Part shown: positions 9,914-17,943 of the stretch, one piece after another
Numbering within the stretch: the stretch's first letter is position 1
Layout: the number at the start of each line of letters is the position of its first letter
Assembly (NCBI GenBank): GCA_964640865.1
Contig: CAZXIU010000001.1
Location: 1 to 49,852, forward strand
Source: an uncultured archaeon
Lineage (GTDB): Archaea; Aenigmatarchaeota; Aenigmatarchaeia; QMZP01; JAFGSV01
DNA: 49,852 nucleotides
Reading direction: 5' to 3'
Notes under the pieces: model-generated
The model's input: the letters and a program-made list of their open reading frames with translations, nothing else
Database searches by the model: none
What the model was told of the DNA's origin: nothing
Program-made: the position numbers and the translations under genes

Positions 9914-10642
9914 ATGAATAAGGCTGTTGACGAATTTGAGCTCCAGAAAGAGCACCTAATGAAGAACATCATAGGAGAGATAGCAGTTTCGGGTGAACCG
10001 AACAAAGCCATCAAAAAATGGCGTTCTCTCTTCAGGGTTTCCCAGAAGGATCTCTCAAAGAATATCGGTGTGACATCGTCAGTGATATCAGACTATGAAT
10101 CAGGGAGAAGAAAATCCCCTGGCATCATGTTCCTGAAGAGGTATGTGGAGGCTCTCATAAGGATGGATGAAAAAAGCGGGGGGGAGGTCCTCAGGGTTTT
10201 CATAGGCACAGACGAGGATAAGCCTGTCTCTGCCGCAATACTCGATATCAAGGAGTTTGATGACGGAATGGGTGTTGATGTCTTCTGCAGGAAAATAGGC
10301 GCAAAAATACTCACAGGCGCATCCACAGACCGTAACATATACGGGTACACTCTCATAGACTCTGTCAAGGCCATAACCGAGCTTTCGTTCACAGAGCTCA
10401 AGAAGCTGTACGGGGTAACTGCGCAAAGGGCGCTTGTATTCACGAACATAACAACAGGAAAGGGTCCCATGATTGCCATAAAGGTCGCCAACCTCAAGCC
10501 CGCGCTGATACTCCTTCACAACATAAACGAAGGAGACGTGAGTTCAGTTGCAAAGAACATCGCTGATGTCGAGGGTGTTCCCCTTGCGATATGCAGCAGC
10601 AATATTGAGGTCTTTATAGAAAAGCTCAGGACCGTTTCCTAA
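9914..10642 (+). CDS. XRE-family HTH transcriptional regulator with conserved archaeal C-terminal domain (COG1395-like)
   Basis: HTH segment WRSLFRVSQKDLSKNIGVTSSVISDYESGRRKSP followed by about 170 aa of extra domain. Confidence 0.7.
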   Translation: MNKAVDEFELQKEHLMKNIIGEIAVSGEPNKAIKKWRSLFRVSQKDLSKNIGVTSSVISDYESGRRKSPGIMFLKRYVEALIRMDEKSGGEVLRVFIGTDEDKPVSAAILDIKEFDDGMGVDVFCRKIGAKILTGASTDRNIYGYTLIDSVKAITELSFTELKKLYGVTAQRALVFTNITTGKGPMIAIKVANLKPALILLHNINEGDVSSVAKNIADVEGVPLAICSSNIEVFIEKLRTVS

Positions 10643-11313
10643 ACAGTTTTAAGTGTTTCGCAATGAACCTTGCTGCCTTCTACGGTAACTATTCCGTAAT
10701 AACCTGAATAAGCTGGGCCTGGATAGAATATGGTTGTCTTTCCTATCATATCAACACCCCTGTTTTCATGTATATGAGCGGAAATGTTAAGGATGGGTAC
10801 ATTTTTATCTATAACCTTCGCAATTTCAGCGGAACCGACATGCTTCTTTTCCAGCTTGTCGAGTGATGTCCCCTTAGGGGGGGCATGTGTGATGAAAATC
10901 CACGGCTTTTTTATATCCTTCAACAGGGCATCAAGAGCTTCTTTCGTGTCATCCTCAGTTGGCTCGAACAGTGTATTGAAGGGTGTTTCAGCGCCGCCCC
11001 AGCCAACGAATGTTATGCCGCCAAAAACCGATGCCTTGTGATGGGCATTGACACCGTACTCTTCAAATATATCCAGTATCTCGAATGGGTCGTGGTTGCC
11101 CGGGACGCATAGTACCGGCTTCTTTGGTATCATAAGCTTCTGTATTACAACATCCGCTATTTCAAGCTGCGTGAAATTCGGTGTTATATCGAACATGTCC
11201 GTGAAATCTCCCTGGGACACTATAATGTCATAATCTTTGTTTTCCAGATCATCCATTATCTTCTGGAGCTTTCCTATCTTTCCGTGTATGTCACCTATAA
11301 CAGCTATTTTCAT
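10639..11313 (-). CDS. Calcineurin-like metallophosphoesterase
   Basis: MKIAVIGDIHGK (DxH), QGDFTD (GDxxD), VPGNHD (GNHD/E), ITHAPP and SAHIHEN motifs. ORF 10639..11385 has a hydrophobic N-terminal extension that I consider non-coding; the start is taken at M25. Confidence 0.8.
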   Translation of the reverse strand: MKIAVIGDIHGKIGKLQKIMDDLENKDYDIIVSQGDFTDMFDITPNFTQLEIADVVIQKLMIPKKPVLCVPGNHDPFEILDIFEEYGVNAHHKASVFGGITFVGWGGAETPFNTLFEPTEDDTKEALDALLKDIKKPWIFITHAPPKGTSLDKLEKKHVGSAEIAKVIDKNVPILNISAHIHENRGVDMIGKTTIFYPGPAYSGYYGIVTVEGSKVHCETLKTV

Positions 11314-11389
11314 TAAACCACCGAATACTGTTATTAGTGCAATAAAGGATAAAAACGTTTGTTTAAAATCACTATACACCCACACGCTT

Positions 11390-11402
11390 GTTTCCTGTGG
11401 AG
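11390..11402 (-). repeat. mini-ORB (reads CTCCACAGGAAAC on minus strand)
   Basis: Plus strand reads gtttcctgtggag. It is the inverted copy of the 11561/11578 repeats. Confidence 0.6.
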
Positions 11403-11480
11403 TTTATGAAATAAAATTTTATGACTTATTATATTATATATTATAATATAACATAGTTATATATACTTATAATAGCGTTT
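11403..11480. other. AT-rich putative duplex-unwinding element
   Basis: tttatgaaataaaattttatgacttattatattatatattataatataacatagttatatatacttataatagcgttt. It is almost devoid of G/C and is bracketed by oppositely oriented ORBs. Confidence 0.55.
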
Positions 11481-11494
11481 TTGCTTCCAAAAAA

Positions 11495-11515
11495 TCTCCA
11501 TACGAAACACAGGGG
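11495..11515 (+). repeat. ORB with G-string (TCTCCATACGAAACACAGGGG)
   Basis: TCCA-N3-GAAAC core followed by ACAGGGG. It has the same architecture as the two elements at 15089 and 15189 on the other strand. Confidence 0.55.
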
Positions 11516-11560
11516 TGGTGCTGTTCTGCTATTTACTTTTTCATTAAAAACAGAAAAAAG

Positions 11561-11590
11561 TTCCACAGGAAATAATTTTCCACAGGAAAC
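11561..11590 (+). repeat. Two tandem mini-ORBs (TTCCACAGGAAA at 11561 and 11578)
   Basis: Exact 12-mer repeated with a 17-bp period. Confidence 0.65.
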
Positions 11591-11595
11591 GGAAA

Positions 11596-11625
11596 GCTTA
11601 TAAACTTCTTAATTTTATTATAATT
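11596..11625 (+). promoter_or_regulatory. TATA-like elements (cttataaac / ttttattataatt) upstream of orc1/cdc6 ATG 11637
   Basis: AT-rich boxes 12-40 nt upstream of the start codon. The exact box is not resolvable by eye. Confidence 0.35.
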
Positions 11626-11636
11626 CCAGTGATTTT

Positions 11637-12860
11637 ATGGCCCAGTCATCCCTTAGCGAAATATTCGAATCTTATACCAATACAGTAGGTCTTTTCAAAG
11701 ACAAGGGAGCGCTTTCAACTGATTTCAGTCCTGCCAATATACCCCACAGGGAAAAGAAGATAGAGGAGCTCGCGTATATGCTGGCTCCTGTTCTCAGGAA
11801 CGAAAAGCCCTCGAATATTTTTATCTACGGAAAGACAGGCACAGGAAAAAGCCTCTGTATAAAGAAGGTGACGGATTCCCTGGAAGAGGCAGCTGAGAAA
11901 AGCGGCCGGAACGTCAAGATAATGTACATAAACTGCAAGATGGGAAAAGTCGTCGACACACAGTACCGGCTCCTTGTAAAGATACTTTCAATGCTTGGCG
12001 AGGACGTGCCTTTCACAGGCCTTCCCACAAACACCCTCCACAAGAAGCTCAATGAGAAGCTTGCTGAACGGGGAGGAAACATAATAATGGTCCTTGATGA
12101 GATAGACGCTCTTCTGGAGAAGATAGGGGATGACATACTCTATAACATAACACGAATAAGCCAGGATGTCCCGAACACACAGATAACCGTTGTCGGCATA
12201 TCCAACAAGCCGACATTCGTGGACAGCCTCGACCCAAGGATAAGGTCATCGCTGTCAGAAGAGGAGATGGTTTTCCCTCCTTACAATGCGAATGAAATAA
12301 AAGACATTCTTCAGGCAAGGGTGGAGACAGCTTTCAATGAGAATGCAGTTGATTATGGCGCCATAACCAAGTGCTCCGCGCTCGCAGCGCAGGAAAACGG
12401 CGACGCAAGAAGGGCGCTTGACCTCCTGAGGGTTGCCGCAGAATTGTGCGAGAGGGAGAAATGCAAAAAGGTCAGCGAGCGGTTCGTCAACAGCGCACAG
12501 GAGAAACTTGACAAGGACAGGCTGATAGAAATAATAAAAGCGCAGCCCAAGCAGTCAAAACTTGTCATAATATCAATGCTTAATCTCTACAAGCAGGAAA
12601 AGAAGGCCGTGCAGACAGGCGATGTGTACAACCTATATGAAAAGCTCGCGCACGCCAACGGGCTTAAGGCGCTTACACAGAGAAGGGTTTCCGACCTGAT
12701 ATCAGAACTTGACATGCTCGGTGTCATAAACGCCTCGGTTGTGTCCAAGGGAAGATACGGAAGGACGCGAAAGATAAACATACAGCTGAACAAGGGTCTT
12801 GTCTCTGTTCTGAAGAATACACTGGCAGGCGAATTTACTGAGGATTTTATTAATTTTTAA
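11637..12860 (+). CDS. cdc6: Orc1/Cdc6 replication initiator
   Basis: AAA+ Walker A GKTGTGKS, Walker B VLDEID and sensor region GDARRALDLLR. The C-terminal winged-helix portion and the 407 aa length are typical. Confidence 0.93.
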   Translation: MAQSSLSEIFESYTNTVGLFKDKGALSTDFSPANIPHREKKIEELAYMLAPVLRNEKPSNIFIYGKTGTGKSLCIKKVTDSLEEAAEKSGRNVKIMYINCKMGKVVDTQYRLLVKILSMLGEDVPFTGLPTNTLHKKLNEKLAERGGNIIMVLDEIDALLEKIGDDILYNITRISQDVPNTQITVVGISNKPTFVDSLDPRIRSSLSEEEMVFPPYNANEIKDILQARVETAFNENAVDYGAITKCSALAAQENGDARRALDLLRVAAELCEREKCKKVSERFVNSAQEKLDKDRLIEIIKAQPKQSKLVIISMLNLYKQEKKAVQTGDVYNLYEKLAHANGLKALTQRRVSDLISELDMLGVINASVVSKGRYGRTRKINIQLNKGLVSVLKNTLAGEFTEDFINF

Positions 12861-12874
12861 CATACTTCTTTTAC

Positions 12875-13810
12875 ATGGAAAAACAGACCATTATCCGCGA
12901 ACTGATGGCAAAAGGCATAATGGTGACACCCGATATACTTGAAATGGCCCTCAGGGACGGCATTGATCAGGTCGTTTCAAGCAGGCATGATGTGGTGATG
13001 TCATCAGTCAGGACAACCGAAAGGACAAGGAATGCAGCAGAACCAATAAAATGCTCTTCACTTCTTTCTGAATCCAAGAAGGAATATACAATTGAAGATG
13101 CTGTCAAAAGCAACTACAGAAGGTATGAGTCGCTGAGACGCATGCTCCTGCGGAAAGCAGACGCGGTTTCCATAAAAAACATAACGAATGCAAAAAGCCG
13201 CATAACAGTCGTGGGGATGGTGAAGGAAAAGAAGGATTTCGGCTTTGTGCTTGAGGACAGCACAGGAGAGGCCACTGTCAAGAGTGATGCCAATGTGGAA
13301 ACAGACGATGTCATAGGTGTTAACGGATGGGTAAGAAACGGTGTTTTCACAGCAGATGACGTTTTTTATCCGGACATTCCGATGGACCGTGTGGTCGGCA
13401 CCATCGAAGGAACGCTTCTTCTGAAGAACACAGGCAGCATCCCTGACGTGAATGCTGATGTTACTGTGACCCCTGATTCTTTCATAACAGGCGGAAAAGA
13501 GGCAATGACATGCACACCCAACACCATCACAGTGGAAAGAGGGGGGAAGAAGTTGATAATAGTTGTGTATAAAACAGACGACCCTGTGAATAAAAATGAT
13601 GCCATCAGGTGGCTGAGAAGGCGCTTTATGCCGAGCAGTGAAAGAATTTTCGACAGCATGTATGTCCTCGACCCGGTGCCTGACATCTTATGGATATCGT
13701 CCAAGAACGATTACTGGTGTGATAATTACAAGGGCACCACAATGGTGTCTTTCGGTTACGGAAGGAGTGCTCTTGTAGATATGAAAACACGTGGTATAAA
13801 ACAACTCTGA
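12875..13810 (+). CDS. DNA polymerase D small-subunit (DP1)/B-subunit-like protein with truncated, apparently inactivated phosphoesterase domain
   Basis: The N-terminal helical module IIRELMAKGIMVTPDILEMAL and the OB-fold block ITVVGMVKEKKDFGFVLEDSTGEATVKS...DDVIGVNGWVRNGVFTADDVFYPDIP are collinear with DP1. Where DP1 has SD(I/V)HVGS this protein has LLLKNTGS. The GDxxD and GNHD regions are absent, and GH(V/T)H is replaced by SSKND in VLDPVPDILWISSKNDYWCDNYKGTTMV. It is 311 aa, against about 480-620 aa for DP1. Confidence 0.6.
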   Translation: MEKQTIIRELMAKGIMVTPDILEMALRDGIDQVVSSRHDVVMSSVRTTERTRNAAEPIKCSSLLSESKKEYTIEDAVKSNYRRYESLRRMLLRKADAVSIKNITNAKSRITVVGMVKEKKDFGFVLEDSTGEATVKSDANVETDDVIGVNGWVRNGVFTADDVFYPDIPMDRVVGTIEGTLLLKNTGSIPDVNADVTVTPDSFITGGKEAMTCTPNTITVERGGKKLIIVVYKTDDPVNKNDAIRWLRRRFMPSSERIFDSMYVLDPVPDILWISSKNDYWCDNYKGTTMVSFGYGRSALVDMKTRGIKQL

Positions 13811-15036
13811 TGTTTGTGGAAATATTACTGTCTGCTTTATTCGGGTTTTCGTTAGGTCTTTTTGCAGGGCTCATACCCGGAATACATCCAAATACCATTA
13901 TGGTTATCATTGGCTCGTCGGCCATCTTATCCGGCACAGCCAGCACAGAATGCATCCTTGCGTTTGTTGCATCCCTTTCAGTGACCAACAGCATAGTCAA
14001 CTTCATACCATCAGTTCTTACAGGCGCGCCTGAATCTGATACATGTCTCTCTGTATTGCCTGCCCACAGGTTCCTTATGTCAGGACGCGGCTATGAGGCG
14101 CTGTACTTGACAGTTGCCGGCGGGGTTTTCGTCACGCTTCTCACAGTTGTTTCCCTTCCATTCCTCCTCTGGGCGGTTCCGGGAATTTACAGCCTGATAT
14201 CAGGCTATATGCACTGGCTGCTCATTGCGGTTCTTTTGGTTCTCCTTATTAATACGCGCTCCAGGCGCGCGCTTTCCCTTTTTGTTTTCATTATCACAGG
14301 GATTTCCGGGTTGCTGCTGCTTTCAACATTTCACCAGGAAACCGTGCTGTTTCCATCGCTTACAGGGTTGTTTGCAGTGCCTGTCCTTGCTCTGAGCGCA
14401 GGAACATTCAGCTTTCCTAAGCAGAAGATACGGACACCAAAGAACATAAGCATGAAAGGAGGCTTCTCAGGATGGCTGTCAGGCATATTCGTTGGCATGC
14501 TTCCCGGCATAGGCTCAGCCCAGGCAGCTGTACTCTCCAATAGTATAGTAAAGGGAAATGAACGGGATTTCATGATGTCCATTGGAGGCATAAACACGTC
14601 GAATGTCATGTTTTCATTCGTAATGCTGTTCACACTCTCCAAGACAAGAACAGGGGCATCCGCATTCATATCAGGCATTTCAGGGGCCATAGACATTTAC
14701 GGACTCTCTCTTCTCATGGCAGTGTCCGTGCTGTCGTGCATGCTTGCAGCTGTTTTTACTCTCTACGCAGGAAGGCTGTTCACGAGAAACATACACAGGG
14801 TTAACTACAGGAAGATGAACTTCACAATAGTTGCATTCCTTGTAGCCATTACATTCATCATAACAGGAATATATGGCCTCTTGATAATGGTCTTATGTTC
14901 ACTTATCGGCGTGTGCAGTTCATATATGGGTGTAAAGCGCATGTATATGATGGGATTTCTCATGCTGCCGACAATAATATATTTCTCCGGTTTAGGGGAT
15001 GCGGCCAGTTTATTCAGTCTCTTGATTCCGGTTTGA
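13810..15036 (+). CDS. Polytopic membrane protein, TctA/DUF112-like
   Basis: About 10-11 TM helices with repeated G(L/M)(I/L)PGI(H/G) motifs (GLFAGLIPGIHPNT, GIFVGMLPGIGSAQA). The start overlaps the upstream stop (TGATG). Confidence 0.6.
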   Translation: MFVEILLSALFGFSLGLFAGLIPGIHPNTIMVIIGSSAILSGTASTECILAFVASLSVTNSIVNFIPSVLTGAPESDTCLSVLPAHRFLMSGRGYEALYLTVAGGVFVTLLTVVSLPFLLWAVPGIYSLISGYMHWLLIAVLLVLLINTRSRRALSLFVFIITGISGLLLLSTFHQETVLFPSLTGLFAVPVLALSAGTFSFPKQKIRTPKNISMKGGFSGWLSGIFVGMLPGIGSAQAAVLSNSIVKGNERDFMMSIGGINTSNVMFSFVMLFTLSKTRTGASAFISGISGAIDIYGLSLLMAVSVLSCMLAAVFTLYAGRLFTRNIHRVNYRKMNFTIVAFLVAITFIITGIYGLLIMVLCSLIGVCSSYMGVKRMYMMGFLMLPTIIYFSGLGDAASLFSLLIPV

Positions 15037-15088
15037 GCGAAAAGCGCTAAGTTAACGCGTAGGAGCTTAACTTCATATGACGATGTTA

Positions 15089-15110
15089 CCCCCCTGTTTC
15101 CACTGGAAAC
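15089..15110 (-). repeat. ORB with G-string (minus strand GTTTCCAGTGGAAACAGGGGGG)
   Basis: Plus strand reads cccccctgtttccactggaaac. It is a near-textbook archaeal ORB core plus a G-run. Confidence 0.6.
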
Positions 15111-15188
15111 CTCTTGATTTTATAGAAAACGATACCAATAGGCCTATGTGAACAACCCATGAACAAAAACGCCACAAGAGTGTTCAGA

Positions 15189-15210
15189 CCCCCCTATTTC
15201 ATATGGAAAT
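15189..15210 (-). repeat. ORB-like element with G-string (minus strand ATTTCCATATGAAATAGGGGGG)
   Basis: Plus strand reads cccccctatttcatatggaaat. It lies exactly 100 bp from the 15089 element in the same orientation. Confidence 0.5.
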
Positions 15211-15233
15211 TCACGGGCAATATATACATATTC

Positions 15234-15261
15234 ATTTCATCTGGAAATTTTCATGGAAAAC
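15234..15261 (-). repeat. Two degenerate mini-ORB-like dyads (atttcatctggaaat, tttcatggaaaac)
   Basis: TTTC-N-GGAAA dyads adjacent to a short AT-rich stretch (caatatatacatatt). Confidence 0.35.
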
Positions 15262-15291
15262 CGGTAACATTAGAGCATGTGTGAAGATGAA

Positions 15292-17943
15292 TTAACTGAC
15301 TGCCACTGAAATGGGTCCCTCTGGTGTGGAAAATTTTAAAGCTCCCCCGCATGAACACTTTCCTGAGAGAGGCGGCCTTGCTGACTTCATTCCACAGGAC
15401 ATGCATATAAAGCCGCTTACATCAGACAGTTTGCCCTTTATCACGGGTTCTTCACATGCTTTCTTGCTGTTGTTTATGACTTCAAAAAGACCCATCTGCT
15501 TTCCCGCGCCGAGAAGCTCGTCCCTGCTTATGCCTATTGCATTGAAAATCCTCTCAAGAGGCGGAAGCAGCTGGTTGTCTATGTAATACTTCGAGTCAAT
15601 TGAAAGTCCGTTTTCCCTGACAAAATTCGGGTCCTCTGCCCTTTTGGAAAGCATCTCCATTCCCTTGACTATCACGTATCCTATCCTGTCGCCGACACCG
15701 GGAAGGTCCATATCATTTCTTTTTTCCATTTTTTTCACAACCTCGACGTGCGGCTGGACACCGGCATATTTTTCAGGTCTTCTGGTGAGGGTTTTCGTTA
15801 TGACAAGCTTCTCAATGTCAACGTCCCCGTCAAGAAGCCCCTTCACCACGTCCTTGAAATATGAAACAGCTGCCTTGGTGTCGTTTTTCTTGAGTATGAT
15901 TTCTATTATCTCTTTCATTGTTTCTCCTGTAAGCTCGCACCAGTCACGCCGCACGGTCTCTATACCCTTCATCACAATGTCGTCCTTCCATTCACCTGTT
16001 TTGTCCCTGAACATGGACCACCCCATGTAACGCTTCTTGGTCAGGGGAAGAAAACGCTTGAACAGCTTTTCGAATTCCAGTTCCATTATACCGGGAAGCC
16101 GTTCAGTCATCTTCTTCCCGATGTCTTTTCCGATTTTCTCCGCCTCTTCCATGCTTTCCGTAGGAACCTTTATCATTACGGAATCAGTATCACCATAGAC
16201 TACCTCATAACCGAAATCCTCTTCCATGGCCTTGACTGTACTGTGTATGGTTTCACGCCCGAAAGCTGTGACAGAACTGGCTATAGCGACATTGTATATC
16301 TTTGCCCTCGTGTAGCCGAAATATCCGTAGAAAGCATTAGCCAGCGTCTTTATCGCGAACTGCTTCAGGTCGAGCATTTTTCTGGTCTTCTCATCAGCGT
16401 TCCTCGCCATCTTCTTGACCTTGCTTCTCTCTTCCATAAGGTTCTCGAGTATACTCGGTATTACGCCGCGTCTGACACTGGGCTTGACGAACATTGAGCC
16501 GTTTGGTGTGGTTATGTGTTCCACATCTTCATTCCCAATAAGAAGCGTGGTCGGGCATATATTATATGTTCGTATAAGTGAAGGATACATGGACTTGAAG
16601 TCAAGCACAAGCACCATTGAATGGAGACCTTTCTTTGGCTCTATGACGAAGCCGCCTTTAAGGTCCTTGCTTTCATCCTCACCGTTACCATTGGTTCTCT
16701 CTGCTATCTGCTCATTGTTCTTGGATGGTATGATAAAGCCTTCCTTGTTGAACACCTTCAGGTAGTAATTTTCTATTCTCTGGCTTTCCCCTCCTTCCAG
16801 TACATCATTCAGGAGCGAACCTGATATTTTTGAAAGCGCGATGTACTTGTCCATGAGGTCAAGCTTCGTGATAAGCTTGAGTGCAAGTATGCTGTCCTGA
16901 AGGCAGTAATCAGCGAGTATCTGGTACTTTTCCTGGGACCCCCTCCAGAACTTCCCTATCTCTGACTTCTTGACGTCTTTCTTCTCCTCTCCTATGAGGG
17001 CTTTCGAAACAAAGTCCAGTCCGTATCTTTTCAGGTTCCAGCCCTTCTTTATCATTGAGAATGAATCCGCAATTATGCGGCCGGTTATTGTTATTCTGTG
17101 CCTTCCACCAAAGACATCATCCCTCACTGACTTGGTTTTGCATCTTCCGAATACGGGCCGTATATTATTCTTTTCCATCCTCTTCAGTATGTAGGGAAGA
17201 TCGTATCCGACAATGTTGAATCCTGTCAGGACGTCAGCGTCATATTCATTGATGATTTCCATGAAACGAATGAGCATGTCCTTTTCACCTGAGAGCGCTT
17301 CTATGCCATCTCCCGGCCTTGTGGAAAGTATAATTGATTTTGTTCTCCTGTAATCATCTGAGAATACAAGCGATATCATCGCAACAGGGTCTGTTTCGGA
17401 ATCAGGCATAGAGCCTTCATTCTTTCCCACTGTCTCTATGTCGAAAGCGAGATACCTGAGCGGAGCATCCTCCTCGGTGTCAATTATTTCGAATTCCTTT
17501 ATCTGGACAAGCCTCTGCGCTGATACGCTTGTTGTGCTTATGCCATTGCTTTCTTTCGTGCTTATCCAGCGCATTCCGCCTATGTCCGAGTCATTCATCC
17601 ACCTGTACTTGAAAAGTATATCAGCCTCGTATGTGCTTATGCCCTTCTTCTTCAGTGCTTCACGCACCTCCACTGTCTTGGCCGGATTCTTCAGTGTTAT
17701 CTTCCAGACATCGCGCGGCTCCTGATATCCCATGGGAAGGGTTCTTTTCACTTTTTCAACATTGTGTATGCTCGGAAGTCCTTCAAGGCTTTCATTTATG
17801 TCATCGCTCGCTGCATAGAAATACGGAAGGAATCCCTCATAGAAACCGCAGACACTTTTTCCTTCCCTGTCCTTTCCGAATATACGCAGAACCGGTCGCT
17901 CATTAACCATTACATAGTCGACATCCATTATCTGAAATTCCAT
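15292..17943 (-). CDS. polB: Family B DNA polymerase with C-terminal Cys4 zinc-ribbon extension
   Basis: Exo I FDIET, pol motif A DFKSMYPS, motif C YGDTDS and KKRY-type LTKKRYMG. About 60 aa follow the usual thumb end (...ERIFNAIGISRDELLGAGKQMGLFEV) and contain CMSC-x12-CSC (residues 847-865, nt 15349..15405). Confidence 0.92.
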   Translation of the reverse strand: MEFQIMDVDYVMVNERPVLRIFGKDREGKSVCGFYEGFLPYFYAASDDINESLEGLPSIHNVEKVKRTLPMGYQEPRDVWKITLKNPAKTVEVREALKKKGISTYEADILFKYRWMNDSDIGGMRWISTKESNGISTTSVSAQRLVQIKEFEIIDTEEDAPLRYLAFDIETVGKNEGSMPDSETDPVAMISLVFSDDYRRTKSIILSTRPGDGIEALSGEKDMLIRFMEIINEYDADVLTGFNIVGYDLPYILKRMEKNNIRPVFGRCKTKSVRDDVFGGRHRITITGRIIADSFSMIKKGWNLKRYGLDFVSKALIGEEKKDVKKSEIGKFWRGSQEKYQILADYCLQDSILALKLITKLDLMDKYIALSKISGSLLNDVLEGGESQRIENYYLKVFNKEGFIIPSKNNEQIAERTNGNGEDESKDLKGGFVIEPKKGLHSMVLVLDFKSMYPSLIRTYNICPTTLLIGNEDVEHITTPNGSMFVKPSVRRGVIPSILENLMEERSKVKKMARNADEKTRKMLDLKQFAIKTLANAFYGYFGYTRAKIYNVAIASSVTAFGRETIHSTVKAMEEDFGYEVVYGDTDSVMIKVPTESMEEAEKIGKDIGKKMTERLPGIMELEFEKLFKRFLPLTKKRYMGWSMFRDKTGEWKDDIVMKGIETVRRDWCELTGETMKEIIEIILKKNDTKAAVSYFKDVVKGLLDGDVDIEKLVITKTLTRRPEKYAGVQPHVEVVKKMEKRNDMDLPGVGDRIGYVIVKGMEMLSKRAEDPNFVRENGLSIDSKYYIDNQLLPPLERIFNAIGISRDELLGAGKQMGLFEVINNSKKACEEPVIKGKLSDVSGFICMSCGMKSARPPLSGKCSCGGALKFSTPEGPISVAVS

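Follow-up and report, generated by a model that had tools for sequence, protein, structure and literature searches.

An Aenigmatarchaeota DP1 homologue without a phosphoesterase active site, a probable partner of a zinc-finger-tailed family-B DNA polymerase

The window analysed here is the whole 49,852-nucleotide stretch of contig CAZXIU010000001.1 (assembly GCA_964640865.1) from an uncultured archaeon of the Aenigmatarchaeota. At positions 12875–13810 on the plus strand, it contains a gene for a 311-residue protein that resembles DP1, the small subunit of DNA polymerase D (PolD), and probably functions as a non-catalytic B-subunit. The gene has an ATG start codon and ends with a TGA stop codon at 13808–13810. 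Directly upstream, on the same strand, is the gene of the replication initiator Orc1/Cdc6 (11637–12860), which was identified by matches to Pfam Cdc6_C (1.4e-27) and Cdc6_lid and to NCBIfam TIGR02928 (1.2e-125). The stop codon of orc1/cdc6 at 12860 is separated from the start of the DP1-like open reading frame (ORF) by 14 nucleotides, and the last base of the latter's TGA, at 13810, is also the first base of the ATG that starts a TctA-family transporter gene. The original prediction, which was made from the sequence of the window alone, had placed the gene directly after cdc6 in an intact and tightly packed frame, and this is what the gap upstream and the overlap downstream show. The orc1/cdc6 and DP1-like genes are probably co-transcribed. 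Beyond the transporter gene, the minus strand encodes a family-B DNA polymerase (PolB) of 883 residues (15292–17943).

The gene order in Pyrococcus, cdc6-dp1-dp2, has DP1 in the same position. The position after cdc6 is therefore that of DP1, as had been proposed; however, the euryarchaeal setting that went with the proposal does not apply, because the NCBI source names of the relatives indicate Aenigmatarchaeota, which belong to DPANN. A protein with 91% identity, MBN1896541.1, is recorded as a hypothetical protein of Candidatus Aenigmarchaeota, the source name used by NCBI. The GTDB loci that contain relatives of the gene come from Aenigmatarchaeota genome bins, including a 742-kb chromosome, and the related loci L007, L008, and L011 carry this label. 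The placement of MBN1896541.1 and of these three loci is that of the database labels, not of a phylogeny from the present analysis.

The gene product is a true homologue of DP1 and of polymerase B-subunits over its whole length. The NCBIfam family NF003118 (PolD small subunit) matches residues 2–172 with an E-value of 2.5e-17; the score of 63 bits fails the curated equivalog cut-off of 445. Residues 67–170 align to residues 134–256 of DP1 from T. kodakarensis (6knb_A) with an E-value of 0.0045. The protein has no Pfam match at E ≤ 0.01, and neither PF04042 nor the Metallophos families are matched even at E ≤ 1. The profile of 106 family members (alignment A3) detects 6knb_A with an E-value of 5.5e-17 in two stretches, one of which is C-terminal (profile positions 233–297) and includes the sequences LLKxRH, PD, and YKGV. 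The comparison of A3 with the alignment of 30 canonical DPANN DP1s (A5) by hhalign has a probability of 100% and an E-value of 6.9e-43, and its 308 aligned columns extend from end to end. The original claim that the N-terminal helical module and the OB fold can be aligned to DP1 is supported by the matches to NF003118 and 6knb_A and by the end-to-end alignment, and the E-values of the two profile comparisons dispose of the concern that the protein might have no significant similarity to the DP1 family.

The AlphaFold2 model calculated from the 106 sequences is compact, with a pLDDT of 91.5 and a pTM of 0.79, and supersedes an earlier model from eight sequences that had a pLDDT of 67. In a Foldseek comparison of the model with the PDB, the 46 best matches are all DP1s or B-subunits of eukaryotic polymerases alpha, delta, epsilon, and zeta. 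The alignments are full-length, the best match is 9f2a_A (7.5e-14), and the top matches have TMq values of approximately 0.6. The matches to eukaryotic B-subunits, for example 5vbn_A, 6tny_B, and 4y97, have E-values of 1e-9 to 1e-11.

The predicted architecture consists of an N-terminal helical domain, an OB fold, and a phosphoesterase (PDE)-fold domain, of which the last appears in the model as a reduced remnant. The N-terminal three-helix domain (approximately residues 1–45; 12875–13009) corresponds to the N-terminus of DP1 as aligned by NF003118 and hhalign. Its helices span residues 3–12, 19–28, and 30–42 in the model and are followed by a low-confidence linker of residues 41–51; Met1 and Pro19 are almost invariant in the family alignment. 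The following helix and OB fold (residues 73–169; 13091–13381) are delimited by the alignment to 6knb_A and by the model strands between residues 110 and 164, and end in the linker YPDIP that connects the OB fold to the PDE domain. Residues E127, D128, T130, G131, V146, P166, and D167 are conserved among the short forms as well as in canonical DP1s. The remaining 142 residues (170–311; 13382–13807) are assigned to the residual PDE-fold domain on the basis of hhalign, the C-terminal match to 6knb_A, the lengths of family members, and the model, in which this part is nearly all β-strand with one helix. Structure prediction, which had been suggested as a means of finding a residual PDE-fold core, thus indicates that a remnant has been retained.

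The sequence of the remnant argues that the protein is not a catalytically active DP1, that is, an Mre11-like 3′-5′ exonuclease, as the ligand set of the five PDE motifs is lost. At the position of motif I, the canonical SDxHxGS is replaced by LLLKNTGS (residues 181–188; 13415–13438), aligned by both MAFFT and hhalign. The relic of motif V, PDILWISSKND in place of PDxxxxGHxH (residues 269–279; 13679–13711), is positioned by MAFFT, hhalign, and the profile match to 6knb_A. Both replacements had been noticed by eye and hold in the hhalign alignment, in which, furthermore, Lys233 occupies the position of the motif IV histidine and Phe251 that of the histidine from the conserved RHL motif. The segment with GDxxD and GNHD had been described as missing. 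This is correct for the ligands, and the hhalign alignment contains a gap of approximately 105 residues, which corresponds to the loss of the helix after motif I and of motif II; however, the strand ADVTVTPDSF (residues 194–203) survives, without Asn or His. It is aligned by hhalign to the strand preceding GNHD and by MAFFT to the GDxxD strand, and in either placement it provides no Asn or His ligand. The PDE domain was aptly called gutted, since the multiple alignment contains no intact Asp or His ligands and the domain is half the usual size.

The loss is a property of the short members of the family. In a census based on hmmalign, each of the 47 canonical DP1s above 400 residues has 7–9 of the nine PDE motif residues, every intermediate value occurs among the 83 proteins of 336–400 residues, and none of the nine are detectable in 123 of the 130 family members of 265–335 residues, although the last count partly reflects non-alignment, because hmmalign to the canonical DP1 profile leaves the PDE region of the short forms unaligned. 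For the 311-residue protein, the count of zero of nine agrees with the hhalign alignment. The median length of the sequence after the PD(I/V)P linker is 285 residues in canonical, 187.5 in compact (336–400 residues), and 141 in short forms, and the 142 residues in the window are typical of the last group. Among compact forms of 338–380 residues, P0157, P0163, P0165, P0179, P0198, and P0200 have seven or eight of the nine PDE residues and usually lack only the histidine of GNHD.

A word-indexed protein search identified only eight relatives of the DP1-like protein. The apparent tiny size of the family is an artefact of the sensitivity of that search, because an exhaustive HMMER search with the profile of the first eight relatives, which supersedes it, found 916 cluster representatives (clustered at 50% protein identity) with E < 1e-3, and 166 with E < 1e-30. 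Among the 150 matches listed, nearly all are 270–370 residues long and match from end to end. More than 120 independent cluster representatives, which come from assemblies of NCBI, ENA, JGI, and Logan, have the short architecture (265–335 residues). Short forms are labelled as hypothetical proteins by NCBI and compact forms as metallophosphoesterase family proteins, and the name DNA polymerase II small subunit is used only in some JGI entries. Because of these labels, DP1 may be counted as missing when genomes are surveyed automatically for replication genes.

The short protein is under purifying selection. The ratio of non-synonymous to synonymous substitution rates (dN/dS), calculated according to Nei and Gojobori against the orthologue from L007 (91% protein identity), is 0.22 overall. 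It is 0.10 for residues 1–172 and 0.39 for residues 173–311; the contrast between the two halves is indicative only, because it comes from a single pair with few substitutions. Besides the conserved residues of the OB fold, R250, P269, and Y285 are near-invariant among the short forms and are conserved in canonical DP1s too, and D270 is invariant in the eight-sequence alignment A1. The retention of structural residues together with the loss of all catalytic ones is the pattern expected for a protein with a structural or interface role. The original prediction that the gene encodes a maintained non-catalytic protein rather than a pseudogene is corroborated by the overall dN/dS, the orthologue comparison that it had called for, here made on one pair, and by the number of cluster representatives with the short form.

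The PolB encoded near the DP1-like gene belongs to DNA_pol_B of Pfam (8e-113), and its best match in the PDB is human polymerase delta (6s1m_A, 3.9e-118). The exonuclease motifs Exo I (FDIET at residue 167), Exo II (NIVGYDLPY at 243), and Exo III (YCLQD at 346) are intact, as are the polymerase motifs A (at 448), B (at 532), and C (YGDTDS at 583). Since Exo I–III are intact, PolB has retained proofreading. The exact 883-residue translation is absent from a collection of 15 billion proteins, unlike those of the neighbouring orc1 and DP1-like genes; the source annotation may have used another start codon for PolB.

The C-terminal tail of PolB (residues 811–883; 15295–15513, minus strand) contains one zinc finger, C847-x2-C850...ARPPL...C863-x-C865 (15349–15405, minus strand). 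The tail is defined by conservation and by a profile match to the third zinc motif (Zn-III) of DP2, the large subunit of PolD: the PolB-tail profile matches residues 1127–1164 of 6knb_B with an E-value of 1e-8, and the DP2 of P. abyssi (6hms_B) with an E-value of 2.5e-6. The pattern GF[IL]CxxC...(R)RPPLxGxCxCGG is conserved in PolB from all 13 loci in which the tail was read, which are the window and 12 relatives. It has been shown that Zn-III of DP2, which has a KxRRxP loop, inserts into a groove of DP1 that is electronegative and is bordered by the OB and PDE domains, and that a 20-residue peptide spanning Zn-III binds DP1 with nanomolar affinity (PMC6355029). The basic loop of the PolB finger is KSARPPL in the window and L007 and (Y/L)RRPPL in most relatives and in DP2; the variants YRMPPL and YRRMPL occur in L008 and L013, respectively. 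In PolD, two arginines contact DP1; one of them is therefore missing from the sub-lineage comprising the window and L007.

In every related locus examined, the dp1 gene follows orc1. A PolB of approximately 880–910 residues is encoded adjacent to dp1 or near it in 15 of the 15 related loci with enough flanking sequence; the distance in the window is approximately 1.5 kb. The polB gene is located directly downstream of dp1, in the same direction, in L012, L013, L015, and L016; in the window, L001–L005, L007–L011, and L014, it is nearby but on the other strand. In L012 (11014–15764), dp1 and polB overlap by four nucleotides. In the four relatives with collinear orc1-dp1-polB, the TctA gene comes further downstream and is encoded on the opposite strand. 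The window (13810–17943), L001, and L005 have the block of polB and TctA in the reverse orientation, so that dp1 is followed by TctA and polB lies on the opposite strand. This looks like the result of a simple inversion by which an operon of dp1 and polB was broken up. The next gene in the window, L001, L005, L012, and L013 is NAC. ORFs resembling LAGLIDADG homing endonucleases are located near the replication cluster of L001 (3488–4603) and L012 (13695–14312), and the equivalent place in the window has no such ORF.

An arrangement of this type has already been published for the phylum; the original prediction mentioned neither this precedent nor the PolB partner. According to the text available of a 2020 study (PMC7544198, Nucleic Acids Res), most Aenigmarchaeota lack DP2 and encode PolBs of group B6 that have one DP2-like zinc motif ('B6-aenigma1') or two, as well as an inactive group of DP1s, and PolB was proposed to be the replacement of DP2. 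In the accessible part of a 2025 study (PMC12680538, Nat Ecol Evol), Aenigmatarchaeota and Baldrarchaeia are described as the only archaeal lineages with DP1 and without DP2. There, the PolB of Aenigmatarchaeota is reported to have a shorter, 'degenerate' version of the DP2 C-terminal domain (DP2CTD), sequences with two motifs are ascribed to contamination from Baldrarchaeia, and binding of DP1 to PolB-DP2CTD is reported from yeast two-hybrid assays and AlphaFold3 models.

The homology of the gene product to DP1, the loss of its active site, its purifying selection, the linkage of its gene with orc1 and polB, and the homology of the PolB tail to Zn-III of DP2 argue that it is a non-catalytic descendant of DP1 that serves as a B-subunit-like partner of PolB, an interpretation to which we assign a probability of approximately 0.8. 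DP2 would have been lost in the Aenigmatarchaeota lineage and replaced by a polymerase-delta-like PolB with the docking finger of DP2, in line with what is proposed in the available parts of PMC7544198 and PMC12680538. The PolB zinc finger, which has a basic RPPL loop, would dock in a groove flanked by the OB fold and the PDE remnant, giving a two-subunit replicase built like eukaryotic polymerases delta, alpha, and epsilon with their B-subunits. PolB would perform both polymerization and proofreading, and the DP1 remnant would act as a scaffold. The N-terminal helical domain may link the polymerase to other parts of the replisome, by analogy with DP1's N-terminal domain in Thermococcus, which binds GINS according to the part of PMC9023282 that was available.

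Several observations weigh against this interpretation. We infer the interaction of the 311-residue protein with the PolB of the window for this particular pair, and the published two-hybrid constructs, which the accessible text does not identify, may be DP1s of approximately 360 residues rather than the 300-residue form. The loop of the finger in the window, SARPPL, has one arginine, versus two in the RRPPL of relatives and DP2. In the clade of the window, polB is outside the dp1 operon, on the opposite strand and beyond the transporter gene. The C-terminal half of the DP1-like protein evolves faster than the N-terminal half (0.39 versus 0.10 in the single-pair comparison with few substitutions). 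Finally, DP2 or a second full-length DP1 may be encoded in the genome outside the 50-kb contig.

Upstream of orc1, the intergenic region at 11386–11636 is a candidate replication origin. It separates orc1 from a divergent metallophosphoesterase gene with intact motifs (10639–11385, minus strand; Pfam Metallophos and Metallophos_3) and contains the inverted boxes GTTTCCTGTGGA (11390–11401) and TCCACAGGAAA(C/T) (11562–11573 and 11579–11590), which flank a very AT-rich, palindrome-bearing stretch at approximately 11405–11480. The boxes between 11390 and 11590 presumably correspond to the origin recognition box (ORB) or mini-ORB elements of archaea, which they resemble. The coarse GC skew of the window provides no usable origin signal. 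In loci with the short form of DP1, the genes upstream of orc1 include a pair encoding an HTH_3 protein (242 residues) and the convergent metallophosphoesterase (248 residues); the pair is located at 9914–11385 in the window, 4853–6270 in L001, 3621–5045 in L005, and 5124–6584 in L014. No Metallophos gene was seen in the stretches read of L012, L013, L015, and L016.

The strongest of the alternative explanations, although an improbable one, is that the remnant has been re-purposed for a function without PolB, as an accessory of the origin or Orc1, as an OB protein that binds single-stranded DNA, or solely as an adaptor of GINS or primase. The gene is packed against orc1 beside the candidate ORB-type origin, and in the clade of the window the transporter gene and the inversion separate it from polB. 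However, a location behind orc1 is the ancestral one for DP1, and orc1, dp1, and polB share one direction in relatives; therefore, the position is not specific to a function with Orc1. Constraint on the protein is greatest in its N-terminal domain and OB fold (dN/dS 0.10), which speaks for this alternative, but the C-terminal remnant is also under purifying selection and is conserved in more than 100 clusters. The protein has weak matches to RPA14 at the level of the OB fold (E 0.11), which are outranked by the full-length matches to DP1 and B-subunits, and its identification as an RPA-like OB protein was rejected. Moreover, PolB keeps a DP1-docking finger that would be purposeless without a DP1-like partner, and the yeast two-hybrid evidence for DP1 and PolB reported for the phylum in the available text of PMC12680538 also speaks for a joint function.

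It is very unlikely that the protein is still the small subunit of PolD, devoid of exonuclease activity and serving a DP2 encoded elsewhere in the genome. The window covers only 50 kb of the genome and DP2 could lie outside it; furthermore, the accessible part of PMC7544198 states that DP2 is absent from 'most', not all, Aenigmarchaeota. Within the 50-kb contig, none of the 58 ORFs of at least 150 residues is large enough for DP2, and the ten large ORFs outside the replication cluster match unrelated families, none of them DP2-like. By contrast with what this explanation requires, Aenigmatarchaeota are reported to have DP1 without DP2 in the text available of PMC12680538, a PolD without proofreading would be error-prone, and the DP2-type finger is present on PolB in every locus in which the tail was read.

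Even less credible is a DP1 split in two, in which the metallophosphoesterase at 10639–11385 would provide in trans the nuclease domain that has been lost. A Metallophos gene whose motifs are intact is indeed located beside orc1 in the window, L001, L005, and L014. However, its product matches Metallophos and Metallophos_3 but not PF04042, and has no match to a DP1 family of NCBIfam, which indicates a generic calcineurin-like enzyme. Its best match in the PDB is aq_1956 from Aquifex (2yvt_A, E 1e-3), and its hhalign comparison with DP1 has a probability of 63% over 55 columns, which include only the generic motifs II–III. The neighbouring gene was thus rejected as the PDE domain of DP1 on the evidence of Pfam, the PDB match, and hhalign. 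That the gene at 12875–13810 is a decaying pseudogene, or a full-length DP1 disrupted by an assembly or frameshift artefact, is ruled out by the dN/dS of 0.22 and by the recurrence of the short form in more than 120 cluster representatives: all catalytic motifs and approximately 140 residues have been lost and the NCBI label is 'hypothetical protein', but the frame is open, the model has a pLDDT of 91.5, and the deletions are internal, in frame, and recurrent across assemblies.

The DP1s of the phylum form a graded series, from proteins of approximately 340–380 residues with seven or eight of the nine PDE residues, through intermediate degenerate forms, to those of approximately 300 residues with none. 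The same PolB finger is present in every locus in which the tail was read, including L012 and L013, where a motif-bearing compact DP1 adjoins a zinc-finger-tailed PolB with its own exonuclease domain. The series is consistent with the stepwise decay of a redundant exonuclease after PolB had replaced DP2. We tentatively suggest, while regarding the opposite as somewhat easier to believe, that Aenigmatarchaeota hold a natural deletion series of the B-subunit, in which the PDE domain shrinks from approximately 188 residues with seven or eight of the nine motif residues to 142 residues with none, beside the same PolB. If the 142-residue remnant still docks the finger, it would define a minimal B-subunit module, and it would also indicate that DP1 was inactivated and eroded stepwise once PolB had taken the place of DP2, a present-day parallel to the route proposed for eukaryotic B-subunits. 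As a corollary, the motif-bearing compact forms may belong to replicases with two exonucleases. The size of the PDE deletion and the decay series of DP1 may be new and represent a modest increment on the published system, to which the locus adds no new principle.

The closest known counterpart is the PolB-DP2CTD/DP1 system of Aenigmatarchaeota, with which, as far as it is described in the accessible text of PMC12680538, the locus shares the phylum, a DP1 without an active site, a polymerase-delta-like PolB, and a single DP2-type finger. The corresponding group in the available part of PMC7544198 is that of 'Aenigma_GB_GCA_002789635-like' DP1 with the PolB 'B6-aenigma1'. The published inactive DP1 group, for which the supplements give neither accession nor length, may consist of forms of approximately 300 or 360 residues. 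The texts available of both studies describe the inactivation of DP1 and not a PDE domain cut to 142 residues. Within the same family, the compact Aenigmatarchaeota DP1s (336–400 residues; for example P0157 and P0165) share the orc1-dp1-polB neighbourhood and the finger-tailed PolB; by contrast with the 142-residue remnant, many of them keep seven or eight of the nine motif residues and still match PF04042, PF12850, or PF00149.

Canonical DP1s, such as those of P. abyssi (5ihe, 6hmf) and T. kodakarensis (6knb_A), have the same order of domains and the same position after orc1/cdc6. They also have in common with the short protein conserved OB residues, the PD(I/V)P linker, a helix of the (R)RHL type, and the PD in front of motif V. 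By contrast, the protein from the window has lost all metal ligands, including both histidines of motif V, its PDE domain is half the size, and its probable partner is PolB instead of DP2.

The B-subunits of eukaryotic polymerases alpha, delta, epsilon, and zeta likewise combine an OB fold with an inactivated PDE domain. They bind the zinc-finger C-terminal domain of a family-B catalytic subunit, which carries its own exonuclease. The differences are in size and in the complexity of the docking element: eukaryotic B-subunits have a full-size PDE fold, with approximately 400–450 residues in the solved chains, and their catalytic subunits have a C-terminal domain of two motifs with a helical bundle, whereas here the PDE remnant has 142 residues and the tail of PolB has a single finger. 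The locus indicates that a DP1 partner can be eroded far beyond the eukaryotic state, to an OB fold and a 142-residue β-strand remnant, while under purifying selection, and that intermediate stages of the erosion exist within the same phylum. The system of PolB-DP2CTD and DP1 figures in models of the origin of eukaryotic replicases, as presented in the parts of PMC7544198 and PMC12680538 available, and among prokaryotes the nearest analogue of eukaryotic polymerases delta, alpha, and epsilon with their B-subunits is PolB-DP2CTD paired with an inactive DP1.

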